Shown: positions 20,776 through 58,088, counted from the first letter of the stretch. The stretch is 64,000 bases of DNA from an uncultured Myxococcales bacterium (GCA_964422715.1 CAYRCM010000003.1:15377-79376); one strand, 5' to 3'. Notes: generated from the letters alone by a model not told the origin. Numbers and translations: made by a program.

Positions 20776-21540
20776 CTACGCCACGACTTCGATGAGGATG
20801 GCGGTCACGTTGTCTTTGCCGCCGTTTTCGCAGGCAGCGCGGATGAGGGCATCGCAGCAGGTCTTCAGGTCGCCCCGTTCGCGGGTGACGATCTCGAGGA
20901 TCTGCGGGTCGGGTACTTCCCCGGACAGACCGTCGGAGCACAACAAGTAGATGTCGCTCTGCTCAGGCTTCTCGCGGTGTGTGTCGACCTGCACCGTCTC
21001 TTTCATGCCCAAGGCTCGCACGATGATGTTCTTGTGCGGGAAGTTCTTCTCTTCCTCCGGCGTCATGGCCGTCATCTTCTTGTAGTCGTTCAGCAGCGAA
21101 TGATCCTCGGTGAGTTGATCGAGGGCCCCGTTGCGCACGCGGTAGGCCCGGCTGTCGCCCACGTGGCCCACCACGAGTTCGTCGTCGAGAAACTGCAACG
21201 TCACGATCGTGGTGCCCATGCCCTTGAAGCGGAGGTCGGACATGGCCTGCTCGAAAATGCGCAGGTTGGCGAGTTTGACGCCCGCCACCAGACGATTCTC
21301 TTCGTAGCCGAGCGCCTTGTCGCCCTTGAAGGGCCAGGTCAATTCCTTGTCGCGGGCCGTGTCCTCGAAGAACTCGCCGATGGTGTCGACCGCGATGCGG
21401 CTCGCCACCTCGCCGGACGAATGCCCGCCCATGCCGTCGGCCACGACGAACAGTTTCTCCTTGGGAACCAACTTGAGGCTGTCTTCGTTGTGGGTGCGCT
21501 TCATGCCCACGTGCGTGGTGCCGGCGTACAGAAGATTCAT
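20776..21540 (-). CDS. PP2C-family Ser/Thr protein phosphatase
   Basis: 254 aa with motifs GMKRTHNEDS, VADGMGGH and the C-terminal DNVT of PPM phosphatases. Confidence 0.9.
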   Translation of the reverse strand: MNLLYAGTTHVGMKRTHNEDSLKLVPKEKLFVVADGMGGHSSGEVASRIAVDTIGEFFEDTARDKELTWPFKGDKALGYEENRLVAGVKLANLRIFEQAMSDLRFKGMGTTIVTLQFLDDELVVGHVGDSRAYRVRNGALDQLTEDHSLLNDYKKMTAMTPEEEKNFPHKNIIVRALGMKETVQVDTHREKPEQSDIYLLCSDGLSGEVPDPQILEIVTRERGDLKTCCDALIRAACENGGKDNVTAILIEVVA

Positions 21541-27480: not shown

Positions 27481-27508
27481 TTGACAGTCGAGCGACGGTC
27501 GTGATAGT
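27481..27508 (+). promoter_or_regulatory. Sigma70-like promoter candidate in an AT-rich island (TTGACA-N16-GATAGT) upstream of the CIS-like operon
   Basis: AAAGAAAATAAGCG-TTGACA (27481-27486) … GATAGT (27503-27508). This is the only strongly AT-rich stretch for several kb, about 95 nt upstream of the first CIS gene. Confidence 0.4.
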
Positions 27509-27602
27509 CCAAAACCACTTTGACGCTCGAAATCGCAGCAATGGCGCGCCGCGCAGACAGTTGTTCGGACTTGCCGCTGCGCACTGAGGCCTGTCAGAAC
27601 GT

Positions 27603-28190
27603 ATGAGCCAATTTGAGGTCATCCGCGACATCGGAAAGACCCTCGAAGACTTGCTCAAGGAAGCGTTCAAGAGCAAGGGTTTCACCACAGTCAACGTCAG
27701 CACCGACAAGCCCAAGAAAGACAATATCAAGAATCTTCCAACGGTTTCCTGCTACCTCTACCATGTCTCCTTCGCCCCGGGCTACAAGGAGCGCACGCAG
27801 GCGCTCGTCTCCACCCAGGACCGCGAGGGCAACATCGTCGAGTTCTACCAGGACGCCCCGGTCTACCTTTGGGCGCACTTCATCATCTCGGTCTGGGGCA
27901 ATTCCCCAGCCGAAGAAAACTTGCTTCTCGGGCTCGCCGTGAAGACCTTCCTCGAGAACCCCATTCTCACGGGGGAGGTGCTCCGCGGCGATTCCTTCTA
28001 CCCCGACGACATGCTCAACATCTACCCGAATCTACAGACAGATTTCAACGACGTCTTGACGTTCTGGAGAAGCCTCAACGAGGAACTGCGTCCGTCCATC
28101 TATTACTATGTCAAATTCCGGATCGAGTCCGACCGGAAGAGTACCGAGGTCAAGCGGGTTACTGGCAAGGATTTTGCTATCCGCCGATGA
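27603..28190 (+). CDS. DUF4255-like (Pvc16/Afp16 N-terminal-like) tail cap/terminator protein candidate
   Basis: 195-aa first gene of the operon, directly preceding a sheath gene, as in many eCIS loci. The assignment rests on context and size; the family membership was not verified. Confidence 0.45.
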   Translation: MSQFEVIRDIGKTLEDLLKEAFKSKGFTTVNVSTDKPKKDNIKNLPTVSCYLYHVSFAPGYKERTQALVSTQDREGNIVEFYQDAPVYLWAHFIISVWGNSPAEENLLLGLAVKTFLENPILTGEVLRGDSFYPDDMLNIYPNLQTDFNDVLTFWRSLNEELRPSIYYYVKFRIESDRKSTEVKRVTGKDFAIRR

Positions 28191-28301
28191 CAGCGTGCAA
28201 CGACTTCGTTTGGCACTCTGCTTTGAGGCGGTGCGCCAGTCGGTAACCCGGGGCGAATGAACGTGAGTCGACACATTGGCCAGAACTAGAAGGAGGAACT
28301 A

Positions 28302-29450
28302 ATGGCAACGTCGTATCTCTCCCCGGGTGTGTATGTCGAAGAAGTCGACCGTGGCACGAAGCCGCTCGAAATGGTTGGCACGAGTACCGTCGGTTTCATC
28401 GGCGAATCGAACATCGGTCCCGTCAACCAGCCCATCTTCTGCACCAACTGGAGTCAGTACACCAAGCACTTTGGCGATTTCCAGAACAGCGAGTTTCTGG
28501 CTCACGCGGTGTATGGCTTCTTCAACAACGGCGGCGGCCGCTGCTTCGTTCTGAACGTCGGCCTGCCCGAAGAAGGCAAGGCGGGCAAAGCGGGTCTCTA
28601 CATCGGCACCGACAATGGCCCCGGCACCCGCACGGGTCTCAAGGCCTTCGAAGACTGCGACGAAATCAACATCGTCGTGGCCCCTGGCCAGACCGAGCCG
28701 GCCATCGTCGACGCGGTGCTCTCCCACTGCGAGAACATGCGCTATCGCTTCGCCATCCTCGACTCCCCCGAACTCATCGAAAAGGGTGGCGTCGACAAAC
28801 TGCCGAAGCCGCGCGACTCCAAGTACGGCGCCTACTACTTCCCCTGGGTCGAGGTCTACGACCCGATCAAGGGCAACATCTACCAACCGCCCTCTGGCTT
28901 CATGGCGGGCATCTACGCCCGCACCGACGGCGAGCGCGGTGTCCACAAGGCGCCGGCCAACGAGATCGTGCGCGGGGCGTTGGGTCTCAAGTACCAGATC
29001 ACGAAGGGCGAGCAGGACATCCTCAACCCGAAGGGCATCAACTGCATTCGCGAGTTCCCGAACCGCGGCATTCGGGTTTGGGGCGCCCGTACCATCTCCA
29101 GTGACCCGTCGTGGCGCTATATCAACGTTCGTCGTCTCTTCAACATGGTCGAGCAGAGCATCGAAATCGGCACCCAGTGGGTCGTCTTCGAGCCCAACGA
29201 CCATCGGCTGTGGAAGCGCGTCACGCGTGACCTCACCGCCTTCCTGATGCGGCTGTGGCGGCAGGGTGCGCTCTTCGGCAAGACTCCCGAAGAGGCCTTC
29301 TACGTGAAGTGCGACGAAGAAACCAATCCGCCGGAAGTCATCGACGCTGGCCAGATGATCGTCGAGATCGGCATGTGCCCGGTGAAGCCGGCAGAGTTCG
29401 TCATTTTCCGCATCGGCCAAATGCCGGCCGGCGGTGACGTTTCCGAGTAG
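28302..29450 (+). CDS. Contractile tail sheath protein, paralog 1
   Basis: 382 aa with N-terminal MATSYLSPGVYVEEVD and the conserved C-terminal sheath motifs (…GAYYFPWV…, …GINCIREFPNRGIRVWGARTIS…, …WRYINVRRL…). Strong AGGAGG Shine-Dalgarno sequence. Confidence 0.9.
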   Translation: MATSYLSPGVYVEEVDRGTKPLEMVGTSTVGFIGESNIGPVNQPIFCTNWSQYTKHFGDFQNSEFLAHAVYGFFNNGGGRCFVLNVGLPEEGKAGKAGLYIGTDNGPGTRTGLKAFEDCDEINIVVAPGQTEPAIVDAVLSHCENMRYRFAILDSPELIEKGGVDKLPKPRDSKYGAYYFPWVEVYDPIKGNIYQPPSGFMAGIYARTDGERGVHKAPANEIVRGALGLKYQITKGEQDILNPKGINCIREFPNRGIRVWGARTISSDPSWRYINVRRLFNMVEQSIEIGTQWVVFEPNDHRLWKRVTRDLTAFLMRLWRQGALFGKTPEEAFYVKCDEETNPPEVIDAGQMIVEIGMCPVKPAEFVIFRIGQMPAGGDVSE

Positions 29451-29527
29451 TCCGACGAACCGGTTCGTTTTTCGGGCTCTTTGAAGGCCTTGGCTAGACA
29501 GTCCACCATCACCCAGGAGGAGGCATT

Positions 29528-29959
29528 ATGCCAAACCGTAGAAAGCACGATCACATTGGGCAGTTCAACTTCAAGGTCGAGATCGAGGGCGTGACCCAGG
29601 GCGCGTTCCGGAACGTCGAAGGCCTCGACAGCGAGACCGAGATCGTTGAATACCAGGACGGCGACGACATCATCCTGCGCAAGCGTCCCGGCCGTACCAA
29701 GTATTCGAACGTCGTTCTGAAGCGCGGCTACATCAACACCGACGAACTGTGGCAGTGGCGCAAGAAGGTCATCGAGGGCAAGGTGGAGCGCAAGAGCGGG
29801 TCCATCATCCTCTGCGCCGACGACGGCGGCGAAATCATGCGCTACAACTTCTTCGAAGGCTGGCCCTCGAAGTGGAAGGGCTTCACCCTCGACGGGAAGG
29901 GCGCCGACGTCAACGTCGAAGAGATCGAACTCGCGGTCGAGAAGATCGAGCGCGGCTAG
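29528..29959 (+). CDS. Tail tube protein (T4 gp19 / Hcp-like), paralog 1
   Basis: 143 aa. N-terminal …GQFNFKVEIEGVTQGAFRNVEGL… is typical of the tube family. Follows the sheath gene. Confidence 0.85.
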   Translation: MPNRRKHDHIGQFNFKVEIEGVTQGAFRNVEGLDSETEIVEYQDGDDIILRKRPGRTKYSNVVLKRGYINTDELWQWRKKVIEGKVERKSGSIILCADDGGEIMRYNFFEGWPSKWKGFTLDGKGADVNVEEIELAVEKIERG

Positions 29960-29997
29960 TTCTTCTTCGAGAAGTCAGAGCCGTCGAACAAGCAAAA

Positions 29998-30044
29998 GAC
30001 CCACTCCGCCGGTCTAGCGGCGGGGTGGGTCGTTTTGCGTTTTG
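29998..30044 (+). terminator. Intrinsic-terminator-like hairpin with U-tract (possible attenuator) between tube 1 and the chaperone gene
   Basis: GACCCACUCCGCC-(8-nt loop)-GGCGGGGUGGGUC forms a 13-bp stem with one G·U pair, followed by GUUUUGCGUUUUG. Confidence 0.45.
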
Positions 30045-30063
30045 AGCAGGGGACAGGCTGACC

Positions 30064-30435
30064 ATGGCTTTCAAGACCGAGTTTGAATTCACACTTCCGA
30101 AGGGTTACGTCGACAAGGACGGCAACCTGCATCGCAAGGGCGTGATGCGGCTGGCCACGGCCAAGGACGAAATTCTCCCCCTCCAGGACTACCGCGTCCA
30201 GGCCAATCGCGCGTATCTCGTCATCATTTTGCTTTCGCGCGTCATTACGAAACTCGGCGATCTGAGCTCCGTCAACCCCTCCGTCATCGAGGAGCTGTTC
30301 TCCGCCGACCTGGCCTACCTCCAGGACTTCTACCGCCGAATCAACGAGGAAGGCACGTCGAAGATCAAGGTGAGTTGTCCGGCGTGCAGCCACAAGTTCG
30401 AGGTCGATCTCGGAGCTGACCTGGGGGAATCATAA
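30064..30435 (+). CDS. Small tail-assembly-chaperone-like protein (P2 gpE / lambda gpG analog) with C-terminal CxxC
   Basis: 123-aa ORF between the tube and the next structural genes. Ends …SCPACSHKFEVDLGADLGES. The downstream ORF overlaps in the -1 frame. Confidence 0.5.
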   Translation: MAFKTEFEFTLPKGYVDKDGNLHRKGVMRLATAKDEILPLQDYRVQANRAYLVIILLSRVITKLGDLSSVNPSVIEELFSADLAYLQDFYRRINEEGTSKIKVSCPACSHKFEVDLGADLGES

Positions 30436-30593
30436 GCTACCCCCTGGACCGCTTGTACCAGGAGGTAGCCTACATCGCCTATCATTTCCATTGGTCGCCC
30501 GACGACGTCTTGGAGATGGAACACAAGGAGCGCCAGGTCTGGGTGCGCGAGATCTCCGAGATCAACAAGGAAATCAACCGTTCCCGCAGATGA
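30420..30593 (+). CDS. Putative -1 frameshift extension (E'/GT-like) of the upstream chaperone ORF; no independent start or RBS
   Basis: The frame opens at 30420, 16 nt before the upstream stop, across a CTGGGGGAA run. It encodes …YPLDRLYQEVAYIAYHFHWSPDDVLEMEHKERQVWVREISEINKEINRSRR. It has no ATG or GTG with an RBS; only a weak TTG at 30453. Confidence 0.35.
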   Translation, partial: PGGIISYPLDRLYQEVAYIAYHFHWSPDDVLEMEHKERQVWVREISEINKEINRSRR

Positions 30594-30606
30594 TGGGGAG
30601 GGGTGT

Positions 30607-32370
30607 ATGGTGACCTACCGGCCTCCTGGCGTCTATCCGGAGCGTGCCGAGCGGCGATATGCCCCACTCACCCTCGCGAAGAGCGGGGTCGTGGGGTTCG
30701 TTGGCATCACCGAGAAGGGGCCAACCGACGTCCCGGTCCACGTGACGAGCCTCCGAAGGTTCCACGAAGTCTTCGGCCACCTCCAGCACCTCGACACCTA
30801 TCTCGAAGAGGCGCTAAAGGGGTTCTTCGACAATGGGGGGCGTGAATGCTACGTGCTCCGCGTGGCCCACCGGGCCAGCCGCGGCACGGGTGGGGCCGCC
30901 CGGGCCGAGGCGACGCTCGTCGATGGACTCGGGCGCAGCACGCTTCTCGCGCAGGCCCGCGACGAGGGCACGTGGGGCAACGAGATCGCGGTTTCCGTGC
31001 GCCGACCGCCGCCGCGGGTGCGGAGTCTGCTCACGATCGACCTCAAGCCCGGCGACTTGTTGGCCACCATCAAGTCGACCCACGGTTTCGAGCGAGGTAC
31101 CGTCGTCCGGATTACCGACGGCGAGGGCGAGGTCTACCGCGTCGTGCGTTCGCTCGACGGCAAGACCCTGCAATGGTTCGACGACCAGCCGCTCGATCGG
31201 GGGTTCAAGTCCGCTGCCCCCACCTACCTCGAGCCCGTCGAATTCGAACTGTCGGCCGAGACCTTGCGCGCGCGCGAAACCTACCGCAACCTCTCCATTG
31301 CCCCCAACAGCCGGAACTACGTGGCGCGCGTGGTCAACGGCGCCTCCGACCTCATTCGGGTCTCCGACCTCGATTCGAACTCCCCGCTGGCCGAGCGCCT
31401 GCCGGTCGTGGTCGACGACGTGCGGCTCGCCGGAGGCACCGACGGCATTTTCTCGCTAACACCCGACGATCTCATCGGCATGAACCTCGGACCCGGGGAG
31501 CGGTACGGTTTGGCCGCCTACGAGGCCGTCGAAGAGGTCGATCTGCTGTCCATTCCCGACCTCGTGTGGCTGTTTCGCGACGAACGGTGCCAGGCGTTTC
31601 GCACGCTCAAGGACGTCGAGGTGGTCCAGCAGTCCATGATCTCGCAATGTGAAATGCTGAAGGACCGCTTCGCGTTGCTCGACGCCCCCGACCCCGACGA
31701 CCACATCCTGGCCCAGCAGTGGCGCCTGATGTTCGACACCGCGTATGCGGCGCTCTACTTTCCCTGGCTCGTGGTCGATGCCGGCGGAGAAAAACGCTCC
31801 ATCCCTCCGAGTGGACACCTCGCCGGAATCTTTGCAAGATCCGACGCCGACCATGGCGTTCACCGTGCCCCAGCGAACGAACCGATTCACGGAATCACAG
31901 ATCTGGAACTGGTCTTGCAAGACGAAGACATCGCGACGCTGAACGAGAGGGGCATCAATTGTATGAAGTACTTTCCAGCGCGGGGCATACGGATTTGGGG
32001 GGCGCGCACGGTCTCCTCGGATTCGTCCCAGCGCTTCCTCAACGTTCGGCGCGTCATGAACACCATCATCCGTACGATGAACACGGGGCTGCAATGGGTG
32101 GTGTTCGAGCCGAACAACCCGCGTCTCTGGAAGATCGTGGACCGCGATGTGACCTATTTCCTTATGACTCTCTGGGAGAAGGGCTGGTTCAAAGGCGAGG
32201 TCCCGGAGGAAGCGTTCTACGTCAAGTGCGACGAGGAAACCAACCCGCCCGAGGTCAGAGATGCCGGGCAGGTGGTCGTCGAAGTCGGCGTCGCCCCTGT
32301 ACGCCCCGCGGAATACATTGTGTTCCGCATTGCGCAGACCGTTGGGGGTGGACGAGAGACGGGCGAATAG
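30607..32370 (+). CDS. Contractile tail sheath protein, paralog 2 (with ~200-aa inserted domain)
   Basis: 587 aa. N-terminal MVTYRPPGVYPER and C-terminal sheath motifs (…AALYFPWLVV…, …GINCMKYFPARGIRIWGARTVSS…). The C-terminal ~120 aa are nearly collinear with sheath 1. Confidence 0.9.
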   Translation: MVTYRPPGVYPERAERRYAPLTLAKSGVVGFVGITEKGPTDVPVHVTSLRRFHEVFGHLQHLDTYLEEALKGFFDNGGRECYVLRVAHRASRGTGGAARAEATLVDGLGRSTLLAQARDEGTWGNEIAVSVRRPPPRVRSLLTIDLKPGDLLATIKSTHGFERGTVVRITDGEGEVYRVVRSLDGKTLQWFDDQPLDRGFKSAAPTYLEPVEFELSAETLRARETYRNLSIAPNSRNYVARVVNGASDLIRVSDLDSNSPLAERLPVVVDDVRLAGGTDGIFSLTPDDLIGMNLGPGERYGLAAYEAVEEVDLLSIPDLVWLFRDERCQAFRTLKDVEVVQQSMISQCEMLKDRFALLDAPDPDDHILAQQWRLMFDTAYAALYFPWLVVDAGGEKRSIPPSGHLAGIFARSDADHGVHRAPANEPIHGITDLELVLQDEDIATLNERGINCMKYFPARGIRIWGARTVSSDSSQRFLNVRRVMNTIIRTMNTGLQWVVFEPNNPRLWKIVDRDVTYFLMTLWEKGWFKGEVPEEAFYVKCDEETNPPEVRDAGQVVVEVGVAPVRPAEYIVFRIAQTVGGGRETGE

Positions 32371-32464
32371 ACTGCTGCGATTGCAGGGTTGACAAGTAGC
32401 GTCGGCAGGCGCGCTGGGCGGCAGCGCACCGCCCCGCGGACCGTCATGGCGAAGGAGAAACGTC

Positions 32465-32956
32465 ATGCCAGCTGGGGCCAGGAATCAGGACTACCAGGTC
32501 AAGTTCAACTTCAACGTCGAAGTCGACGGCATCACCGCCGGACGATTCGTTGAGGCAGGCCCTCTCAAATGGAGCACGGAAGCCGAATCCGTGCGTGAGG
32601 GTGGCAACAACGCGGGCAAGGTCAACTTGGTGGGCCCGGGTACCTTCGACAAACTGTCCCTCAAACGTGGGTACCTCATCGCAAATACAGAGTTCTTCCA
32701 GTGGATGAAGGACATCCATGACCCGGCCAAAGGCAAGGGCTCGGGGTTGCGGCACAACTTCGACCTCGTCGTCCTCGATGACTCCGGGGCCGAAGTGGGG
32801 CGCTACAGCTTCTTCAACGCCTTTGTGTCCAACTATTCGGTCGACGCCTTCAACGCCAAGACGGGCGAGATTGTCATCGAGTCCGTTGAGTTGACCTATG
32901 ACTACTTCACGGTGAAGGGCTCGGGCGGCAGCGGGTTCACTGGGTCCGAACTGTGA
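32465..32956 (+). CDS. Tail tube protein (gp19/Hcp-like), paralog 2
   Basis: 163 aa. …YQVKFNFNVEVDGITAGRFVEAGPL… parallels tube 1. AAGGAG Shine-Dalgarno sequence. Confidence 0.8.
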   Translation: MPAGARNQDYQVKFNFNVEVDGITAGRFVEAGPLKWSTEAESVREGGNNAGKVNLVGPGTFDKLSLKRGYLIANTEFFQWMKDIHDPAKGKGSGLRHNFDLVVLDDSGAEVGRYSFFNAFVSNYSVDAFNAKTGEIVIESVELTYDYFTVKGSGGSGFTGSEL

Positions 32957-33004
32957 TGTTCCGCGCTTCAAGCGTCGCTGGCGGACTCGTGAGGTAGCGA
33001 GACC

Positions 33005-36000
33005 ATGGACGAATCCAAAACGCTGGGCACCAAACGCGACGGCACGAGCCCGAGGCTCGTCGCCGACCTCGTGAACCGCTTCGGGAGCGAGCACGCCGAC
33101 GTAACCCCCGATGACTCCAAGGCCTTGGCGGGCATGGGGGAGTGGCTGGGCCACCTCCAGTCGCGGAGCGACCCGAGCCACGTGGTCCTGTCCGGCGGCT
33201 GGACCCCGGCGGGCGGGCGCGACGTTCAAGAGCGTATCGCCTCCCGCTACCGTCTGGCCGAGCGGCCGCCGATTGCGACGGGGATTGCCGCGTTTCTTGG
33301 TGGGCTGCGCTGGACTTCTGCGCCCGAGCAGCGGTTTTTCGAATGGGGGGGCTTCGACGATTTCGAGTCCCTGATGCTCGAACCCGAACTGCCCGAGGGG
33401 GCCGACGAACTTGGAGACACATCGCCCCGACCCGCAGCGCGCGCAGGGGGATTGCGTGCGGGGCGGAAGGGCCGCGGACAGGCGAGCGTCCAGTCTCGCT
33501 CCGCGAAGGCGGGTGAGGTTGCCCGGTTGTCAGTGGCCACGCCGCCGCCCGGCGCTCCAATGGCCGCCGGCAACCTTCTCAGCGGCGAGTCGCTCGCCCC
33601 GCCGGAACCGCTGCGCGCGGTTTCTGCGGGCGCAGCACCGGTCGTCCTCGACGGCGTCCCGCTCAGCCCGCGCACACTGCCTGCCTTGACGGCAGCGCTT
33701 GCGCGGGTTTCCGAGGTCTTCCAAGGGCCGGCTGCCGCGACCGCGCGGCGTTTCAGCCCGGCTGCCTTTTCGGCGGCGCTCAAGGTCGTGTCGTTGACCT
33801 CGGCTGATGCGCCGAGCCAAAGGCGCCATGGTGCGCCGCCGCAGGCGACAACCGACCCGCGCAGCCAAGCCGCGGCGCAGGGCGTCTCACCGCGCGCGGT
33901 CGGCTTCCACCGCGGGATGGAACTGGGGACTGTAGTCCCCGGATCGGGCACGGGTGACCCCACTCCGGGGACCCCAGAAACCCGAATTTCTGCCAGGGCC
34001 CAGAAACGACGGGTACCCGCGACGTCCGCCGCCGACCCGACGATGCGACTCGGCCGGTACGGCTTCGCGCGCGACTTCAGTCTGACGCCGGCCGAAACCT
34101 TCTCGTCCTCCGTCATTCTGCGCGCCTTGGACGAGGCGCCCGACGCCGGACCTGACGCGTTTTCGCCGGGAGCAGGGTACGTCCAGCCGGCGGCTCCGGC
34201 CGCGCAGTCAACGGCGCTTGTTGGCGACAACGACATTGTCTACGTGTCTCTCGAAGACCTGGATCCGGCCGTACTTGGCGGCGGCGGCGAGGCCGAGGCC
34301 AGTTTGCGTGTGCCGACGGGCCTGCGTACGTTTGCCCGACTGCCCGCCACGGTGCGCGAGCGGCTCAGCAGCCATGCCTTGACTGTGACCGAGGCCGTTC
34401 GTCTCCAGCAGGCCCTGGCCCGCTCCGCGTCCTCGCCGGCCGGTCGACCGCTGCGGTCCCCGCACGCGCCGAGCGCCGCCGCGCAGGCGGCCGTCGTGCC
34501 AGCCGCCGCGGTGCGCGACCGGGTCGATGTGCAGACTCCGCCGTCTCTGCCGGCGGCGCTCCGCAACGCTGTGGCCGCGCGCACGCTGCCCGCGGAGGCG
34601 CGGTTTGGCTCGAGCGAGGTCGAGCCCGCGCAGCCGCGCCCCATTGGGCAGCCGGCTGTGCTCGGGCGTCCCGAACTGCTCGCCAGCCAGGTTCGCGCTC
34701 TTCGGGCTGCACTGCAGCCGAGGACGCTGCGGGCGCCGTTGGTTGGGCGTGACGCGCCGTCGGCGACGCCGGGCACCCGACCGGGAGCCAGGACGCGCGC
34801 AGCGAGCATCGAGTCGTGGATCCACGGGCTGGCCGCGATCCCGGGCGTGGAATCCGGCGCGTCCCCCACGGTGGGTCTTGGCGGTTCCCTGACGTCCGCC
34901 GCCAACGAGGCGGCGGGGCCGCGCCAGGTGCGGGCCGCGACCGAGGACGTTGGCCAGGGTCGCGTCGTCCCTGCCGGCATTCTCGATGGGGAATCCTTCA
35001 GCTGGTCCGGGTTCGACTTTCTTGCCCCGCAGGCCGAGGAAGCGGTCGTGCGCGACGAACAGCGTGTCGTTGCGGCCGCCCTTGCGGCAGCAGCGGGCGC
35101 GTCGCCGACTGGGGCGCAGCGTGCGGCCCAGCGCAGTACGTCGAAGCAGCCCCGACGGGCTCGGACCACTCGGGTGGCAGCCGCCCTTGAGCCCACGGCT
35201 TCTCTGGTCGGCGGCGTCGCTCCGGCCCTGCCCCCGACCGTCTCCGAGGCGCTGGCGGGGCTGACGGGCACCCGGCCCACCATCGCGGCGGGCGTTCGCC
35301 TGCGGGCCGACGTCGAAGAGGTAGGACGCGGCATCCGCCGCGCGGCCCCGGCCCGTGCGCAGGCCCCGGTCCCCGGCACCGCCGACGTTGCTCCGGCCAC
35401 GGCGACCGGTCGTCCGACCGAGGCCGCGTCCTCCGCGTTGACCGCGGAGACGCCGGAACTTGCGGCCTATTCCTACCTGCCGCGACTCGTGGCGCACCTT
35501 GGCGTCCGTCAGGCCGCAGCCGTGCTGCCGGCCCTGCGTACCGCGGAGGCGCGTCGCACCCTCACCGCCCGGACACCCGAACAGATCTCACGTCTCGTCG
35601 GTCCCGAACGGACCTACGCGGAGGGCTGGCTCTCCTCTGCCGTCGAATTGACGCGCGAGTGGCTTCGCCCCGTCGGGCCGGAGGGCCCCGCGGCGCTTCC
35701 AGAAGACGCCCGCGGGGTCGAGTCGGCCGCCGCATCGACGCGGCAGCGCGGGTCGGCCACGGCGGTGGGTGCAAGCGTGGCCGCCGATGCCCGCCCCCGG
35801 CGAGCTTCGGCCGAAGTCAGCGCGCCGGCGTTTGGGTTGCATCCCGGCTCCACGGGGGAGCCCGTGGGGCATGAGCGAACCGGTGGCGCAGTGGCGAGTG
35901 AGCGCGGGCGCTACTGGGGCGGCTTCGCGCCGTTGCGCAGTCGGGGCGCCAGTGGGGTGGCCGACGTCCTTCGTCAGGAGGCCCTCGCGATGGCCCTTGC

Positions 36001-37879
36001 GAGCCGTCACGCTGCCACTTCGGGCGACACCCCCTCGGCATCGAGCCCTTGGGACCGTGCCTGGGCAGGCGATCTGCTGACACTCGTCGAGCTCGAAGAG
36101 GCTCTTCGGACAGGCCCACCCGCTGGACAGGCCGAGGTCGGCGGTGATCCTGCCGCCGAAACGCGAATCGGCCGCGCCGGCGCCCGGGCCGGGGTCGAAC
36201 CGCGGAGGACGGTAGATGTGCCGGTCGACCGAGCAACAGCGGCCGGCGCCCCAAGTGGCCGCGCCGCGTTGGGCGCGGTCGAACTCGGCCGGGCCCTGAC
36301 GGCAGCGCGCCAGGTCCAGGAGCGGATGGGGGCGCCGACCCCTGTGGTGCAGCGCGTCGCTGCGGGGCTGCTGGGCCGTGAGACGGTCGGGCTTCGCCTC
36401 TCGACAGCGGTCGACGGGAGACTGACCGAGACCGAACCGGCCAACGACGTCGTGGCTCGGGCCGAGTCTGCGGCGAGGCCGCTCGGCGGGCCCGCATTCA
36501 CCGGTTTGGCGGATCGGCTCGAACGCTTGTGGGGGGGCGCTGCAGAGTCCCGCACCTCCCTCACGGGCCTTCCCGATGGCACGACCGAAGCATTCTGGGC
36601 CGAGGACGGCGCCCTCGTGCTGCCCGAACCCTCCGAGGCCGAAGCGTCGTCTCCGGCCGGTGGCGAGACGGGCGGCCTCCCGACGGCCCTCGCGACTCGG
36701 GCGGCAGCGCGGCGTGGTGCGCGCCCGGGGCGTCTCAGCGTTTCTCGGGGCGGCGCCGCCGACCAGCCGCTCACGGCTATCGAACGCGTCGCCGCGCGGC
36801 GTCTGGCGGCAGCCGCCAGCGGTGCTTTGCGGCGTCAGCCGCAGGCGGGCGGGCCGGCGGAACCCGGGCGATCGACAACCGCGTACCCGACCCTCATGGC
36901 CGTTCTCGCCGATCGGCCCGACGTTGCCGCCCGGGTTCTGCGTGCGGTTGGCGGCCAGGCCGATACGGCCGCGCAACTGCTGCGGCTCGAACCTGCAAGG
37001 CTGCCTCGGGCCGTTCGCGATGCGCTCACCCAGGCCGGCATCGACTGGGCCGCGCCTGCGCCCGCCGGAGGTGGCGCGGTGGCTGCCGAAGCCACCCGGC
37101 GTGCCAGCGCGGCGGTTCTCGACATCGAAACCATGATCGCGCTCGCCCTTGCCGACACAACGGGCGGGGTGGGCGACCCGATCAAGAGTGGCTTGGCCGA
37201 ACGGGCCCTCGGCGAAATCCCTGCCGCTTGGGCCCACGCCAACGACGCCATGGTGCAGCGGTTGGTCGAGCGGCTCACGCGCAGTCGGGCCGTCCGGCCT
37301 CTGGACATTGGCTTCGCCGACATGGAGCCGGTCGCCGGCGACACCGCCGCCACCTCTACAGAAGTGCCTGAGGCAGGCGGTGGGGTCACGCTGGTGCAGC
37401 CGGGTGCGGCGCCGACCCCGTCCGAGAATGAGCCGGCGCGGCGCACGCGTCGTGACGTCGTGGCGCCTGAGGGTCCTGGGGCCCCGATGACGGCGGCCCT
37501 CGACGCTGTCGACATGTCGCCGGTCACGTGGGACCTGATTCAGACCCGGCTCAGCAGCGCGCCCGTGTCGCACGCGCGTCCGGCCAACGTGTCTGGGGTG
37601 GCCCAGGCCATGTTGAGCAACCGCGTTCTGACCCGGTCTACACTGCCGCTCGTGGCTCCGGCCGTTGCCCAGGTCGCGGCGCAGGCGCAACTCAGCGCGT
37701 CCGGCGGTCCGACAGCCGACGCCCAGCCCACGCAGACGCAGGCCGCTGCTGGCGATGGCGCCGGTGCGGGCCTCGAAAAGCAACCCAAGCTCGATATGGA
37801 GCGTATCGCAAAGGAAATTGCGTCCAGGATTTCTCTGCGTGCGAGACGAGAGAATGATAGGAGAGGGACATGGCTCTGA
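33005..37879 (+). CDS. Giant (1624 aa) Ala/Pro/Arg-rich low-complexity protein in the tape-measure position (TMP candidate)
   Basis: 4.9-kb open frame, far beyond the random expectation of about 50 codons at 70 % GC. Codirectional with the operon, with an RBS before the ATG and a 10-nt overlap with the downstream gene. The antisense ORFs are Arg/Gly-rich artifacts. No recognisable catalytic motifs. Confidence 0.6.
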   Translation: MDESKTLGTKRDGTSPRLVADLVNRFGSEHADVTPDDSKALAGMGEWLGHLQSRSDPSHVVLSGGWTPAGGRDVQERIASRYRLAERPPIATGIAAFLGGLRWTSAPEQRFFEWGGFDDFESLMLEPELPEGADELGDTSPRPAARAGGLRAGRKGRGQASVQSRSAKAGEVARLSVATPPPGAPMAAGNLLSGESLAPPEPLRAVSAGAAPVVLDGVPLSPRTLPALTAALARVSEVFQGPAAATARRFSPAAFSAALKVVSLTSADAPSQRRHGAPPQATTDPRSQAAAQGVSPRAVGFHRGMELGTVVPGSGTGDPTPGTPETRISARAQKRRVPATSAADPTMRLGRYGFARDFSLTPAETFSSSVILRALDEAPDAGPDAFSPGAGYVQPAAPAAQSTALVGDNDIVYVSLEDLDPAVLGGGGEAEASLRVPTGLRTFARLPATVRERLSSHALTVTEAVRLQQALARSASSPAGRPLRSPHAPSAAAQAAVVPAAAVRDRVDVQTPPSLPAALRNAVAARTLPAEARFGSSEVEPAQPRPIGQPAVLGRPELLASQVRALRAALQPRTLRAPLVGRDAPSATPGTRPGARTRAASIESWIHGLAAIPGVESGASPTVGLGGSLTSAANEAAGPRQVRAATEDVGQGRVVPAGILDGESFSWSGFDFLAPQAEEAVVRDEQRVVAAALAAAAGASPTGAQRAAQRSTSKQPRRARTTRVAAALEPTASLVGGVAPALPPTVSEALAGLTGTRPTIAAGVRLRADVEEVGRGIRRAAPARAQAPVPGTADVAPATATGRPTEAASSALTAETPELAAYSYLPRLVAHLGVRQAAAVLPALRTAEARRTLTARTPEQISRLVGPERTYAEGWLSSAVELTREWLRPVGPEGPAALPEDARGVESAAASTRQRGSATAVGASVAADARPRRASAEVSAPAFGLHPGSTGEPVGHERTGGAVASERGRYWGGFAPLRSRGASGVADVLRQEALAMALASRHAATSGDTPSASSPWDRAWAGDLLTLVELEEALRTGPPAGQAEVGGDPAAETRIGRAGARAGVEPRRTVDVPVDRATAAGAPSGRAALGAVELGRALTAARQVQERMGAPTPVVQRVAAGLLGRETVGLRLSTAVDGRLTETEPANDVVARAESAARPLGGPAFTGLADRLERLWGGAAESRTSLTGLPDGTTEAFWAEDGALVLPEPSEAEASSPAGGETGGLPTALATRAAARRGARPGRLSVSRGGAADQPLTAIERVAARRLAAAASGALRRQPQAGGPAEPGRSTTAYPTLMAVLADRPDVAARVLRAVGGQADTAAQLLRLEPARLPRAVRDALTQAGIDWAAPAPAGGGAVAAEATRRASAAVLDIETMIALALADTTGGVGDPIKSGLAERALGEIPAAWAHANDAMVQRLVERLTRSRAVRPLDIGFADMEPVAGDTAATSTEVPEAGGGVTLVQPGAAPTPSENEPARRTRRDVVAPEGPGAPMTAALDAVDMSPVTWDLIQTRLSSAPVSHARPANVSGVAQAMLSNRVLTRSTLPLVAPAVAQVAAQAQLSASGGPTADAQPTQTQAAAGDGAGAGLEKQPKLDMERIAKEIASRISLRARRENDRRGTWL

Positions 37880-38580
37880 AAAACGACATCATGGGCCAGG
37901 CGTACGGCGGAGAACTGGCCCGGGCCAAGCTCAAGGTCATCGCCGAGCATGCGGGGTCGATTTCGGGTCCGACGGAACTGGAGTTGCCGATCAACCCGAA
38001 CAAGGTGACCGTCTCGAAGGAGGTCAACCGGGGTTCCGACTCTCCGGCCGTGGGCTCCGACACGAGGCAGCGCCAGGAAACGGGCAGCGAACCTCGCACG
38101 GTGACTCTCCATGACGTGATCTTCGATACGTACGAGGAGCGCGACGACGTCCGCACCAAGTACATCGACACGTTGGAGAAGTTTGCGAGCGTCGACAAGA
38201 ACCTGCACCAGCGACCGACCCTGATGCTCGACTGGGGTGCGTTCAAGACGACGTATGAAAGTGGGGGCAAGCTGCTCGTCGAAATCTCCAAGTTCGACGT
38301 GACCTACACGATGTTCCTGCGCGACGCCACCCCGGTGCGGTGCCGCACGACCATCGTGCTCAAAGAGGTCACCGACCCGAAGGAGAAGGCGTCCGAGATG
38401 CAGTCGCCCGACCACGCGAAGCTGCACACCGTCATTCGCGGCGACACGCTCCAGGCCCTGTCCTTCAAGGAGTACGACGATCCCCGGGAATGGCGCCGCA
38501 TTGCGGATGCCAACAACCTGGACGATCCGATGCAGCTCGAGCCCGGGACGAAACTGTTGATCCCGCCCATCCTCAAGTGA
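37870..38580 (+). CDS. LysM-domain tail-tube-initiator/baseplate protein (Afp7 / Mu gp43-like)
   Basis: 236 aa with a C-terminal LysM (…HTVIRGDTLQALSFKEYDDPREWRRIADANNLDDPMQLEPGTKLLIPP). In this position, before a GpD hub gene, it matches CIS and Mu-like tail loci. Confidence 0.7.
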   Translation: MALKNDIMGQAYGGELARAKLKVIAEHAGSISGPTELELPINPNKVTVSKEVNRGSDSPAVGSDTRQRQETGSEPRTVTLHDVIFDTYEERDDVRTKYIDTLEKFASVDKNLHQRPTLMLDWGAFKTTYESGGKLLVEISKFDVTYTMFLRDATPVRCRTTIVLKEVTDPKEKASEMQSPDHAKLHTVIRGDTLQALSFKEYDDPREWRRIADANNLDDPMQLEPGTKLLIPPILK

Positions 38581-38615
38581 GACGGGCGTCGCCGTAAGCG
38601 GGGAGAGCGGCTGCC

Positions 38616-39809
38616 ATGGCAAGCGGACAGACCGGAAAAGAAGTCTCCATCTCCATCAAGATCGATGGCAAGGAAACGTTGACCGGCTCGGTTGGGGGGT
38701 CCGAACCCCTCATCGACGGTGGGCCGATCCCGTACCTGCGGGTGGAGAAGTACCTGAACGCACCGGACAGCTGTGTGGTGCAGTTCAGCCAAATCAAAGA
38801 GGGCAAGATCGACATTCTCGATCAGGACTTCGAGGGCAAGTCCATCGTCATCGAGGCGGGTATCGGCCGCGGCAGTCGCGGGCCCCTGTTCGTTGGCGAG
38901 ATCGCGTATGTCGAGCCCCACTTCACCACGGGGGAAGAGCCTCCGTATACCGAGATCGGGGCGTACGACCACTCGCACCGCCTCACCCGCGGCACGCGTT
39001 CCCGAACCTGGGGCGACGGGGTCCAGGCGAGTGAGAAGGTCAGCGACGTCGCCAGCAACGTCATCTCGTCCAGCATGAGCCAGAAGGGCGATGCGACCGA
39101 CCAACTCTCGATCGACAAGGTCGACGCGTCGACGCCTCAGCACGCCTACGTCGCCCAGGTCAACCAGAACGACTACCAGTTCATGCGGCGGCTGGGCTAC
39201 GCAATGGGACGCGTGACCGACTCGGACTCGACCGCCGACGACAAGAAAGTCCGATTCGCCAAGATCGACCCATCGGCGGGCGAGGTCGTGACGATTTGCC
39301 GCGAGGCAGCCGGACAGGATCAGTCGCAGGTCCTTGCGACGAACATGCGTCTCGGTCTCAGCGCCGTTCGGCAGGTCGTCAAAGTCATCGTGCGCGGCTG
39401 GAACCAGAAAGAAAAGAAGAACATCGTCGGTATTGCTGAATCGAGCGACATCAGTTTCGACGGCACGCCGGGCTGGCAGCGTTCGGCGCAGGCGTTCTAC
39501 GGCAGCGCGAGCGCCGGGCGCGTCTACGAAGTGGTCAACCAGCCCGTCGACAGCAAGGAAGAAGCCGATGCCGTGGCGCAGGCTATCTTCAACGGGCTGT
39601 CGCTCGACTTCGTTACCGGCGAGGCCACGTTCCCCGGGCGACCTGGCATCAATCCGGGCGACATGGCCAAGGTTGACGGCAAGTACGGCGGACGTTTCGG
39701 TGGCAAGAAATTCCTCATCACGGGGGTTATCCATACCATCGACCGCTCCAACGGGTTCCTGACAACCCTCCAACTCGCGCGCAACGCCATCGGCGATCCC
39801 ACCGCCTAG
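38616..39809 (+). CDS. Baseplate hub protein, phage late control GpD / gp27 / VgrG-N-like
   Basis: 397 aa. …QNDYQFMRRLGYAMG… matches the Phage_GPD core. Has no gp5-like beta-helix spike extension. Confidence 0.7.
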   Translation: MASGQTGKEVSISIKIDGKETLTGSVGGSEPLIDGGPIPYLRVEKYLNAPDSCVVQFSQIKEGKIDILDQDFEGKSIVIEAGIGRGSRGPLFVGEIAYVEPHFTTGEEPPYTEIGAYDHSHRLTRGTRSRTWGDGVQASEKVSDVASNVISSSMSQKGDATDQLSIDKVDASTPQHAYVAQVNQNDYQFMRRLGYAMGRVTDSDSTADDKKVRFAKIDPSAGEVVTICREAAGQDQSQVLATNMRLGLSAVRQVVKVIVRGWNQKEKKNIVGIAESSDISFDGTPGWQRSAQAFYGSASAGRVYEVVNQPVDSKEEADAVAQAIFNGLSLDFVTGEATFPGRPGINPGDMAKVDGKYGGRFGGKKFLITGVIHTIDRSNGFLTTLQLARNAIGDPTA

Positions 39810-54202: not shown

Positions 54203-54527
54203 GGGTGCGGGCTCCTCGACGCGGCCACGGGGCCGCGCGGCAAGGTTTTTTGGGCCCGGGCGGGGGATCGAGACGGCCCCGCGGGCGGTTGCACGGCCGA
54301 ATGATAGGCGGCCACGGCGCGGAATGCACGCCCCGCCCGACCCAGTTCGGGGGGGGCGCCATCCGAGCGCGGGCGGCGCTCCCGCCAGGCCGGCTCGCCG
54401 TGAACGGCGTTGATCTTTGGATTCCAATGCCTAGACTGCGTCTGCCGCGCGCCGTGCTCGGCGTTCCGGTCGAACGGCACCGAACCGGACACTGCGTCAG
54501 CGGCCGACGGCACCAGGGGCGAAGCGT

Positions 54528-57755: not shown

Positions 57756-58088
57756 CCGCGGCTGTCGGCGTCCCCCTTGACGTGGGCGAGAAGGCTCGCG
57801 GCCGCGCGGGGCCCACGGGTTTCCCCGCCGCCCTGCCGACCGACCGCGCAGCCCGTGCGCACCGCGGTGCTCCGGCCGAACCGTGATAGGCCGGGCCGCC
57901 GCGCAAGAGCCCGGCCTGTGCGGGGGCAGGGCATTTGACCGCTTTCTGGCGTTCGGGCACGATGCTTCACGCGGTTTCGGGTGGGCCTGCTCCAGGCCCC
58001 CGGGCGAGGCGGGTAGCCGCCGTCGCAGGACAGGACCGGCGGCGCGCGGTGGGCCCGCGAAGCCACAAGCGGAAGGGTAGGGGCGCAT

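Follow-up and report, generated by a model that had tools for sequence, protein, structure and literature searches.

Tail-module operon of a probable two-operon contractile injection system in an uncultured Myxococcales bacterium

Genes and features of the operon

The DNA analysed here, a stretch of 64,000 nt from an uncultured Myxococcales bacterium (hereafter the window), carries sheath, tube and hub genes on the plus strand at 27603-39809. Nine genes had been named in an initial annotation made from the sequence; all lie at the coordinates claimed, on the plus strand, with identities upheld by Pfam, PHROG, PDB and Foldseek comparisons, and an overlooked DUF6760 frame brings the number of reading frames to 10. 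The features are:

27481-27508, +, putative sigma-70-like promoter (TTGACA, 16-nt spacer, GATAGT), intergenic, upstream of the cap gene
27603-28190, +, tail terminator/cap, Afp16/Pvc16/Cis16-like, 195 aa (Pfam Pvc16_N, 1.4e-22)
28302-29450, +, sheath 1, 382 aa (Phage_sheath_1, 4e-20; Phage_sheath_1C, 9e-21)
29528-29959, +, tube 1, inner tube protein, Afp1/Cis1-like, 143 aa (Phage_T4_gp19, 4e-38; TIGR02241)
29998-30031, +, GC-rich hairpin 3' of tube 1, 14-bp stem and T-rich tail
30064-30435, +, tail assembly chaperone, analogue of P2 gpE/lambda gpG, 123 aa (PHROG 508 'tail assembly chaperone', 6.8e-6)
30420-30593, +, DUF6760 or P2 GpE(E')-like extension (Pfam DUF6760, 1.3e-15; weak Phage_P2_GpE, 1.1e-3)
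30607-32370, +, sheath 2, 587 aa (Pfam sheath domains, 1.6e-13 and 1.2e-15)
32465-32956, +, tube 2, Afp5/Cis5/Cis1b-like adaptor/initiator, 163 aa (gp19, 5.5e-30)
33005-37879, +, 1624-aa low-complexity protein in the tape-measure position (by position and composition)
37870-38580, +, LysM tube initiator, Afp7/Pvc7/Cis7-like, 236 aa (CIS_tube, 1.2e-16; LysM, 5e-7)
38616-39809, +, baseplate hub, gp27/P2 gpD/Mu gp44-like, 397 aa (Phage_GPD, 2e-6; NCBIfam VgrG_rel, 7e-30)

The putative promoter matches the consensus at 10 of 12 positions and is one of only two such sites in 14.8 kb; its -35 box coincides with position 27481, at which the initial annotation had begun the feature. Shine-Dalgarno sequences precede most of the operon genes. 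The hairpin after tube 1 is likely to be an attenuator or an mRNA-stabilising element, and 8 of 12 relatives have a strong hairpin, unrelated in sequence, at the corresponding intergenic position.

In comparisons with the PDB, the cap matches the Streptomyces Cis16 cap (9gts_0A, 2.7e-8), and it shares 64-71% identity with its counterparts in relatives. Sheath 1 (83-87% identical to relatives) matches the Streptomyces Cis2 sheath (8bky/9gtp, 3e-135) and is probably the main sheath subunit. Its paralogue sheath 2 has a large N-terminal insertion, is less conserved (49-62%) and matches 8bky over the C-terminal 290 aa only (8e-98), and probably forms a specialised sheath layer like Afp3/4. Both tube ORFs match NCBIfam TIGR02241 and, in the PDB, tube proteins from the Algoriphagus, Anabaena and PVC systems; tube 1, with 87-91% identity to relatives, matches the main Algoriphagus tube (7adz_1a, 1.8e-19), and the top matches of tube 2 are the baseplate-proximal tube proteins 7aeb_Y and 7b5h_AM. 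The LysM initiator matches 9gtp_P (7e-19) as well as 7aeb_M, Pvc7 and Afp7.

Family searches proposed with the initial annotation gave clear matches for sheath, gp19, Pvc16_N and LysM, and a Phage_GPD match for the hub just under the cut-off (27.6 bits against 30.1). The hub identity is nevertheless upheld because of its structure: a Foldseek search with the AF2 model (pLDDT 94.2) ranked Cis8/VgrG hubs from the Anabaena, Algoriphagus and Streptomyces systems highest (E 1e-25 to 2e-27), with TM scores of 0.74-0.77 on the query for 7b5h_AJ, 7aef_q and 9gtr_q, and of 0.73-0.75 on the target for Mu gp44. In the PDB sequence comparison the hub covers residues 36-340 of the 643-aa Cis8 (9gtr_q), and the ORF is equivalent to the N-terminal, hub-forming portion of Afp8/Cis8 and lacks both the gp5 OB-fold and a spike. 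The family and structure matches of cap, sheath, tube, initiator and hub bear out the original assignment to the contractile injection systems.

The chaperone has a C-terminal CxxC motif. Its homologs number at least 7999 and carry the NCBI name 'phage tail assembly protein'; the top matches are 78-90% identical to it. Pfam and PDB sequence searches gave no match for it and its AF2 model is poor (pLDDT 59), but the PHROG 508 match and the naming of its homologs agree with the earlier guess of a P2 E/E'-like chaperone. The DUF6760 frame overlaps the chaperone 3' end in the -1 frame, with a slippery G5 run at 30423-30427 in the overlap. ATG, GTG and TTG are all absent from the interval that separates its upstream stop (30417-30419) from its conserved SYPL motif. 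Across 29 unique chaperone/DUF6760 junctions the G5 run is always kept, and a canonical DUF6760 start is absent from 10, the window among them; Gly-Gly-Ile/Val is conserved in the -1 frame 5' of the expected start. These patterns suggest that the extension is probably a programmed -1 frameshift product of the chaperone, at a G_GGG_GAA site that is not a classical X_XXY_YYZ heptamer; termination-reinitiation is a possible alternative.

The 1624-aa protein (20% Ala, 10% Arg, 10% Gly and 9% Pro) gave no match in Pfam, NCBIfam or PHROG searches. Its gene has a GC3 of 0.78 and a stop that overlaps the start of the LysM gene. Relatives with full-length calls have an ORF of 1200-1806 aa in the same position (one 557-aa call, in L005, looks truncated), conserved only in the C-terminal ~80-120 aa, ending in RExERRG, and in short internal patches. 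We regard it as a putative tape measure and/or lumen cargo.

The surrounding sequence

The initial annotation had found no baseplate, spike, fibre or ATPase gene within 12 kb on either side, and the absence holds for the whole window: Pfam searches of all large ORFs found no baseplate wedge, spike, PAAR or phage gene across the 64 kb, and the baseplate proteins of relatives, used as tblastn and HMM queries, gave no match there. The other large ORFs gave matches only to housekeeping or otherwise unrelated proteins, namely Lon, ClpX, ClpP, Tig, Nuo, UvrA, a Ser/Thr kinase and PP2C, together with a porin, NicO, HAD, an M3 peptidase and a tubulin-like protein. No Afp15-like AAA+ ATPase is present in the window, where the sole AAA+ proteins are the housekeeping ClpX and Lon, encoded 22-26 kb upstream of the locus on the opposite strand. 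Neither is there an AAA+ ATPase within 10 kb downstream of the Baseplate_J gene (J) in relatives, and even the contiguous relatives of the window's sub-clade showed no spike, PAAR or AAA+ ATPase. The TssB/C sheath pair, the TssJLM membrane complex and ClpV gave no match in the window, and the locus, whose sheath and cap are Afp/PVC-like, does not qualify as a type VI secretion system.

Phage head, capsid, terminase, integrase, lysis and fibre genes are also absent from the 64 kb, and no repeats flank the locus, which argues against a defective P2/Mu-type prophage tail or the remnant of an R-pyocin-like tailocin. Such an origin would fit the order of chaperone, tape-measure position, LysM and gpD-like hub, which, with the predicted E/E'-type frameshift, mirrors P2. 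However, a Pvc16_N cap and a CIS_tube LysM initiator are both characteristic of contractile injection systems, to which every one of the best solved matches belongs, with no phage tail among them. GC3 is also the same as in host genes, and a phage origin is highly improbable. With GC3 values of 0.78-0.88, like those of flanking genes, the operon is therefore not recent foreign DNA.

The source contig is metagenome-assembled, and a chimeric join at 39.8-40.2 kb, introduced in assembly or binning, could in principle have displaced baseplate genes that really follow the hub. The hub-to-porin junction is, however, reproduced in a separate Logan assembly of SRR12133404; the boundary is thus not due to one assembler or binning, which speaks against the mis-assembly that the initial annotation had raised as a possible cause of the gap. 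Neither GC content nor tetranucleotide composition changes from one side of the locus to the other (tetranucleotide distance 0.019 between the two flanks, and 0.010-0.020 between 13-kb chunks and the pooled flanks), and the same break point occurs in many unrelated assemblies, leaving an artefact barely credible.

Contiguous and divided relatives

In three relatives (L002, L004 and L005) the same first nine or ten genes are followed directly by a baseplate operon, and the window proteins are 42-91% identical to their orthologues in such contiguous relatives. The order after the hub is a gene of 63-64 aa, GPW_gp25, a J protein of 991-994 aa, Tail_P2_I, a protein of 511-513 aa and two FHA proteins. 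The 63-aa gene between hub and gp25 encodes a zinc-ribbon; the FHA pair, comprising one FHA protein and one VWA-transmembrane-FHA membrane protein, is usual but not invariable after the ~511-aa gene.

Elsewhere in the lineage the boundary between hub and 63-aa gene is cut in many relatives, and baseplate operons stand free in related genomes. The 25 closest hub relatives from a JGI metagenome scan include 16 informative loci, of which 12 have the first half alone, as do two of five relatives examined individually; each of these first-half loci ends directly after the hub, and together they span GC contents of 0.48 to 0.76. In the two examined individually the hub is followed by ruvBAC (L092, on a 293-kb contig) or by AhpC, VKOR and Lnt (L094). 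The second half alone, amid housekeeping genes, was found at 15 distinct loci of ~60 informative Baseplate_J loci, in at least five clades; one clade is large and split throughout. At one such locus (L013/L089, GCA_011526585.1) the second half starts at the 63-aa gene, with a 5'-3' exonuclease and a histidine kinase on one side and PHB, Fur and aspartate kinase on the other, and L096 is a further example. The position of the split is constant in the lineage, and the split is the majority state in the window's sub-clade.

By tetranucleotide composition alone, not by shared accessions, the flanks of some first-half and second-half loci in relatives look paired, at close to within-genome distances (L107 with L029, 0.0195; L110 with L029, 0.021; L094 with L039, 0.019-0.024), judged against a within-genome reference of <=0.02 that was taken from larger fragments. 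The window has no match among the second-half loci fetched, the lowest tetranucleotide distance being 0.0295 against <=0.02 within it. Three J candidates for the second half of the window genome were rejected as parts of other genomes: P0106 and P0215 are from other sequencing samples, and P0128 (PRO4), found only in NCBI and in an unrelated Logan record, failed the composition test.

We interpret the operon at 27481-39809 as the tail module of a two-operon (split) contractile injection system belonging to a large uncharacterised Myxococcota lineage, a reading to which we assign a probability of roughly 80%. The 'missing baseplate' is most likely a split locus of a known kind, because the baseplate genes of this lineage commonly form a separate operon, and from these sequence comparisons we infer that the window genome carries a gp25-J-P2_I operon elsewhere. 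The initial annotation had left the choice between a split or degenerate system and a distinct minimal sheath-tube-hub apparatus; the half-loci in relatives favour a split system, a degenerate one fits poorly, and nothing positive speaks for a minimal apparatus.

If the locus were a degenerate remnant, its baseplate half would have been deleted and its tail module would be non-functional and decaying. In favour of this reading, baseplate genes are absent from the whole 64 kb, and L002, the nearest relative of the window in the hub+LysM tree, has a contiguous locus, which means that the cut could be recent. Against decay, all ten reading frames are open and match their orthologues in length, the 4.9-kb low-complexity ORF included, and dN/dS is below 1 in eight of eight genes tested (0.10-0.17 for sheath 1, tube 1, chaperone and cap), indicative of purifying selection as a long-term constraint rather than constraint since the split. 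Moreover, at least 14 other divergent loci preserve an intact first-half-only layout, and free-standing second halves occur in at least 15. A remnant is unlikely because it would need many independent recent deletions, none with decay.

A self-sufficient sheath-tube-hub apparatus, whether contractile or a scaffold, would work without a wedge or dock on the baseplate of another system, and a genome without gp25, J and P2_I would then hold a contractile apparatus of a kind not seen before. Yet the window proteins are orthologous to proteins that share an operon with gp25-J-P2_I, their genes lying directly upstream of it in the contiguous relatives, and in the hub+LysM tree the first-half-only loci form no clade of their own with separate adaptations. 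To our knowledge every known contractile sheath (T4, T6SS, Afp/PVC structures) requires a gp25/TssE-like initiator, and we consider self-sufficiency very unlikely.

Under the split-system interpretation, homology suggests that a gp27-like hub trimer, the LysM initiator and the Cis5-like tube adaptor would form a tube-initiation complex, assembling around the conserved C-terminus of the 1624-aa protein, which the P2 E/E'-type chaperone, probably in two forms made via the -1 frameshift, would keep soluble. Tube 1 would then polymerise and sheath 1 around it, with sheath 2 as a specialised layer and the Pvc16-like cap ending the particle. The operon alone would be insufficient to build or fire a contractile particle, for which a wedge of gp25 (nucleating the extended sheath), Baseplate_J and P2_I would be needed. 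These would come from the second operon of the lineage, composed of the zinc-ribbon 63-aa gene, gp25, the ~994-aa J, P2_I and the ~511-aa protein, often with FHA genes next; the FHA proteins may provide membrane anchoring or phospho-regulation.

Comparison with known systems

The locus has the sheaths, gp19/Hcp-like tubes, Pvc16_N cap, LysM initiator and hub (the hub part only) of an Afp/PVC-like contractile injection system in the sense of Chen 2019 and Geller 2021, and lacks gp25 (Afp9), Baseplate_J (Afp11) and P2_I (Afp12). Alone it fails single-locus definitions of these systems, but the lineage as a whole qualifies; Afp8 and Afp11 have been reported to co-occur in 98.7% of loci (Geller et al. 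2021).

As judged from sequence, the closest solved relative is the cytoplasmic CIS-Sc of Streptomyces coelicolor (dbeCIS subtype IId; 8BKY, 9GTP, 9GTR, 9GTS), the top solved match of sheath 1, sheath 2, the LysM initiator and the cap and the best sequence match of the hub (1e-18). Cap, sheath, tube, initiators and hub follow one another in the same core order in both, and neither has tail-fibre genes. CIS-Sc is one contiguous 19-gene cluster without a tape-measure gene (Casu et al. 2023 and 2025, PMC12237407), whereas in the present locus the baseplate genes are missing and the 1624-aa protein occupies the tape-measure position. Further differences from CIS-Sc are the 397-aa hub in place of a single 643-aa hub-plus-spike Cis8, the two sheath paralogues, the chaperone/DUF6760 pair, the FHA and VWA-transmembrane-FHA proteins that end the baseplate operon of relatives, and the Gram-negative Myxococcota host. 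Subtype IId has a single contiguous Afp8 ORF (gp27 + gp5), one afp11 and no afp14 (Chen 2019, PMC6899500); with its gp27-only hub and long tape-measure-position protein, the present locus is not a typical member.

Afp, PVC and AlgoCIS share with the locus the Afp16-like cap, Afp2-4-like sheaths, Afp1/5-like tubes, Afp7-like initiator and Afp8-like hub, but genes for an Afp15 ATPase, an Afp13 fibre, PAAR and toxins are missing from the locus, and its hub is spikeless. The tape-measure-position gene follows tube 2 and precedes the initiator, an arrangement shared with phages, whereas afp14 sits at the 3' end in Afp. The P2 block FI-FII-E/E+E'-T-U-D is similar in its sheath, tube, chaperone with -1-frame extension (the frameshift at the present locus being a prediction), long protein and gpD-type hub. 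Unlike that block, the locus has an extra sheath/tube pair between chaperone and long protein, an injection-system cap and initiator, and no phage genes.

The label 'non-canonical' in the initial annotation proves overstated, as two sheath and two tube paralogues are the usual Afp2/3/4 and Afp1/5 pattern, gp27-only Afp8 is known from subtypes IIa-IIc, and split loci are known already. Split loci were described in 13 genomes of 11,699 and regarded as exceptions (Chen 2019, PMC6899500), and the T6SSiv of Amoebophilus asiaticus, whose afp1/5 genes lie at one locus and afp11 at another, is functional (Böck et al. 2017, as cited in PMC6899500). As in those cases, tube genes in the window genome would lie apart from Baseplate_J. 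What sets the Myxococcota lineage apart from the split loci of Chen 2019 is that its split is recurrent, falls at a constant gene boundary and prevails in the window's sub-clade.

The tail operon and the DNA around it

The tail operon is a tight row of co-directional genes (27603-39809, +) in high-GC DNA (about 69%). Nine of its genes had been called in the initial annotation, and all nine calls are supported: by Pfam matches, by a PHROG match for the chaperone, by AlphaFold2 (AF2) modeling with Foldseek for the hub and, for the 1624-aa ORF, by its presence, although without a family. The list was nevertheless incomplete, as it overlooked the DUF6760 reading frame at the end of the chaperone gene.

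Features of the tail operon in the window
27481-27508 (+), sigma-70-like promoter (consensus match), at the start coordinate of the initial annotation
27603-28190 (+), cap; Pfam Pvc16_N
28302-29450 (+), sheath 1; Pfam sheath
29528-29959 (+), tube 1; Pfam gp19-type
30064-30435 (+), chaperone, 123 aa; no Pfam match, PHROG 508 'tail assembly chaperone'
30420-30593 (+), DUF6760 reading frame; overlaps the 3' end of the chaperone
30607-32370 (+), sheath 2; Pfam sheath
32465-32956 (+), tube 2; Pfam gp19-type
33005-37879 (+), 1624-aa protein in tape-measure position; matches no family
37870-38580 (+), LysM tube initiator; Pfam CIS_tube and LysM
38616-39809 (+), hub; Pfam Phage_GPD just under the Pfam cut-off, confirmed by structure

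The hub model (pLDDT 94.2) has its best Foldseek matches among the hub parts of Cis8/VgrG proteins from Anabaena, Algoriphagus, Streptomyces and PVC systems, and is also matched by Mu gp44 over the full length of gp44. Best PDB matches to tube 2 are baseplate-proximal tube proteins. The chaperone family has at least 7999 members, carrying the NCBI name 'phage tail assembly protein', and the AF2 model of the chaperone (pLDDT 59) was too poor for a fold search. Homology suggests a mechanism in which the tube would be started by the hub together with the LysM initiator and a Cis5-like tube 2, tube 1 and sheath 1 would form the bulk polymers, and the cap would end the particle, with the wedge for sheath nucleation and triggering supplied by a second operon.

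All ten reading frames are open and have the lengths of their orthologues. Identity to relatives is highest for tube 1 (87-91%), sheath 1 (83-87%) and the chaperone (79-89%), followed by the cap (64-71%) and the other orthologues (36-62%, the 1624-aa protein left out). Crude Nei-Gojobori dN/dS estimates are 0.10-0.17 for four genes (cap, sheath 1, tube 1, chaperone) and 0.3-0.6 for the other genes tested. GC3 of the operon genes (0.78-0.88) is the same as that of the flanking genes and the GC dip sits in GC1 and GC2; the 'AT-rich island' is therefore a matter of amino-acid composition and not of recent import, and recent horizontal transfer was rejected as the source of the low GC. The locus is an ordinary member of its lineage, and it is highly unlikely to be the remnant of a phage tail.

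No baseplate gene was identified by Pfam among the large ORFs of all 64 kb, which encode solely housekeeping or unrelated proteins (Lon, ClpX, ClpP, trigger factor, the Nuo operon, APH, nucleotidyltransferase, LysM-M74 peptidase, PP2C, UvrA, Ser/Thr kinase, a PPC-domain protein, porin, a 1976-aa metallohydrolase-repeat protein, NicO, HAD, metallo-beta-lactamase, M3 peptidase and a tubulin-like protein), and relatives' baseplate proteins used as tblastn and HMM queries had no match anywhere in the window. The baseplate gap initially noted within 12 kb on either side thus extends across the whole window. A minus-strand block at 9-17 kb with baseplate-like gene sizes is the Nuo complex I operon. 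Mis-assembly, which the initial annotation had raised as a possible cause of the gap, is highly improbable: the same hub-to-porin junction is present in an independent Logan assembly of SRR12133404, and composition is homogeneous on both sides of and across the tail locus. Neither the locus nor the junction is flanked by meaningful direct or inverted repeats, and a mobile-element insertion at the break was rejected.

The porin and the 1976-aa protein downstream were rejected as parts of the system, neither being conserved beside the first-half genes in any relative. The latter (41447-47377, +), directly 3' of the phosphate-type porin, combines a CehA/McbA metallohydrolase domain with acidic double-disulfide repeats. 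Toward the end of the window, a 573-aa protein (61557-63278, −) has a Tubulin_2 (bacterial tubulin-like) domain (1.1e-29) and adjoins an 1111-aa protein with Dictyostelium-type CTDC repeats (58089-61424); a 2158-aa open frame (54180-60656, −), antisense to real genes and matching no family, is a spurious high-GC ORF.

Separation of tail and baseplate operons in relatives

There are about 95 close homologues of the hub, almost all of them in metagenome-assembled genomes of Myxococcota or 'Deltaproteobacteria'. Three relatives' loci (L002, L004 and L005) share the first-half genes of the window, cap to hub, and carry a baseplate operon directly after the hub, encoding in order a 63-64-aa zinc-ribbon protein, GPW_gp25 (132 aa), a 991-994-aa Baseplate_J (J), Tail_P2_I, a 511-513-aa protein and FHA proteins of ~210 and ~500 aa. 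This contiguous arrangement is the full form of the system. The double-CxxC zinc-ribbon gene that opens the second half (L002 11566-11760, L004 11372-11563, L089 9407-9598) holds a position occupied in other systems by PAAR/spike-tip genes.

In two other relatives the locus ends exactly where the window's tail operon does, with ruvB-ruvA-ruvC (L092, on a 293-kb contig) or AhpC, VKOR and Lnt (L094) following the hub. A metagenome scan was seeded with a narrow hub alignment and its 25 closest matches were classified: 12 are first-half-only (the 3-10 kb seen beyond the hub is unrelated DNA), four are contiguous and nine were too short to classify. GC of the first-half-only loci checked, from the scan and individual look-ups, ranges from 0.48 to 0.76. 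The reciprocal arrangement was found in a J-seeded scan of species-representative genomes, which returned at least 569 loci, those examined being nearly all from Myxococcota. Among the informative loci of the best 80 of these, after removal of duplicates, about 34 are contiguous, 12 (Kofleriaceae and Haliangiales) have the hub separated from the 63-aa gene by 3.5-8 kb of inserted DNA, and 15 are second-half-only, defined by at least 7 kb upstream with no sheath, tube or hub. One second-half-only locus (L013/L089, GCA_011526585.1), the sole one seen with gene calls, begins with the 63-aa gene and has housekeeping genes on both sides; L096 is an additional example. In both insert loci examined (L067 5483-9025; L049 665-1447) the insert encodes Phage_base_V (gp5/gpV OB-fold) spike proteins of 239, 260 and 932 aa, the largest extended at its C-terminus by a long segment, possibly an effector fused to the spike. 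No spike gene was seen in either half-locus of the window's sub-clade.

The J tree places split loci in at least five clades, including a large one that is split throughout, and in a hub plus LysM tree the window groups with the contiguous L002, then L092, then L094. The boundary between the hub and the 63-aa gene is a natural operon boundary in this lineage that has been repeatedly pulled apart with both halves persisting intact, which is sensible only if both are kept in one genome. Some first-half-only and second-half-only flanks pair at near within-genome tetranucleotide distances (L107 and L029, 0.0195; L110 and L029, 0.021; L094 and L039, 0.019-0.024), a composition signal that is suggestive only. 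We conclude that the window locus is probably one of the two operons of a contractile injection system, the one that carries the tail module (probability about 0.8).

Loss of the baseplate half, leaving the window with an orphaned first half, is unlikely given the intact persistence of both halves elsewhere. A search for J homologues gave 1834 matches and did not lead to the baseplate operon of the window's own genome; none of the three candidates followed up is from that genome. P0106 is on a contig of the contiguous type assembled from a different sample (SRR28720267), P0215 (GC 0.52) derives from SRR30574052, and P0128, the J of GCA_011526585.1 (PRO4), is in a clean second-half-only locus with the composition of a different genome (flank GC 0.72 vs 0.688; tetranucleotide distance 0.041). 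The window genes are very unlikely to form a self-sufficient minimal machine.

Candidate regulatory and assembly features

The DUF6760 frame is the −1 frame of the chaperone and has a weak Phage_P2_GpE match. The window's copy lacks any ATG, GTG or TTG from the upstream stop (30417-30419) to a conserved SYPL motif, the codon at the usual DUF6760 start position being ATA, and a canonical start is absent from 10 of 29 unique junctions, window included. A run of at least five G just 5' of the chaperone stop is present in all 29, which come from very divergent loci (L002, L004, L020, L030, L104, L130, L142 and others); the window has a G5 run at 30423-30427, within the junction region 30417-30440 (candidate frameshift cassette CUGGGGGAAUCAUAA). 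Gly-Gly-Ile/Val is also conserved in the −1 frame upstream of the nominal DUF6760 start. Together, the G run, the absent starts, the −1-frame conservation and the P2_GpE match suggest a probable programmed −1 frameshift of the P2 E/E+E' type, predicted to yield a chaperone-DUF6760 fusion of about 176 aa; termination-reinitiation is the alternative. A 183-aa chaperone homologue (P0339) was rejected as a natural fusion, its N-terminus being wrongly extended. Literature searches found no description of a frameshifted chaperone in contractile injection systems and no relevant paper on DUF6760. If confirmed, the frameshift would carry a conserved phage translational trick into non-phage machines.

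A strong GC-rich hairpin lies directly 3' of tube 1 (29998-30031). Eight of 12 relatives have a hairpin between tube 1 and the chaperone (L002, L004, L005, L094/95, L101, L102 and L107), unrelated in sequence with position and stability kept. It is probably an attenuator or stabilizer, and would lift the dose of sheath 1 and tube 1 over that of the downstream genes.

The 1624-aa protein is rich in Ala (20%), Arg (10%), Gly (10%) and Pro (9%), and its gene has an unusually high GC2 (0.64). Relatives' ORFs in this position (L002 3847-9048; L004 4269-9239; L092 3720-9140; L094 5676-9278) encode 1200-1806 aa and are almost unalignable; the C-terminal ~80-120 aa (...R(I/L)xxRxxRExERRG) are conserved with L004 and L094, and short internal patches are shared with L002.

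The last genes of the baseplate operon usually encode a small FHA protein and a signal/TM-VWA-TM-FHA membrane protein (together L002 18582-20924); in the larger protein the FHA domain is C-terminal, and a VWA domain and a transmembrane segment are also present. The pair recurs at this position in L004, L005, L089 and many other loci, and is absent from the split baseplate loci L096, L038 and L039. These proteins hint, speculatively, at inner-membrane anchoring or control by Ser/Thr phosphorylation. The window also encodes a Ser/Thr kinase (24827-26806) shortly before the tail operon and a PP2C phosphatase (20776-21540); the link could be a coincidence, as kinases of this type abound in these genomes.

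Comparison with known contractile injection systems

Split loci as such are already documented, in 13 genomes, and the Amoebophilus T6SSiv is functional with afp1/5 and afp11 at separate sites; gp27-only Afp8 genes occur in subtypes IIa-IIc (Chen et al. 2019, PMC6899500). The novelty is that the split in this Myxococcota lineage is so regular and so common, and we found no relevant paper on a Myxococcota system of this kind. Surveys usually demand Afp8 and Afp11, or at least ten core genes, in one cluster (Geller 2021). As the lineage is often split into tail and baseplate operons, cluster-based pipelines will overlook it or rate it incomplete, a blind spot covering a lineage with at least 569 J loci in species-representative genomes.

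The hosts of this lineage are predatory and social bacteria. The closest solved system by sequence is CIS-Sc of Streptomyces coelicolor, a cytoplasmic type IId system linked to cell death. Host lifestyle, the Streptomyces relative and the FHA proteins together offer a possible functional clue for an uncharacterized lineage. Matches to CIS-Sc were obtained for sheath 1 (3e-135), the LysM initiator (7e-19), the hub (1e-18) and the cap (2.7e-8). However, CIS-Sc is contiguous, has a single sheath and a fused hub-spike protein, Cis8, and lacks a tape-measure gene, whereas the window's system has no baseplate at the locus, two sheaths, a separate hub and the 1624-aa protein in the tape-measure position.
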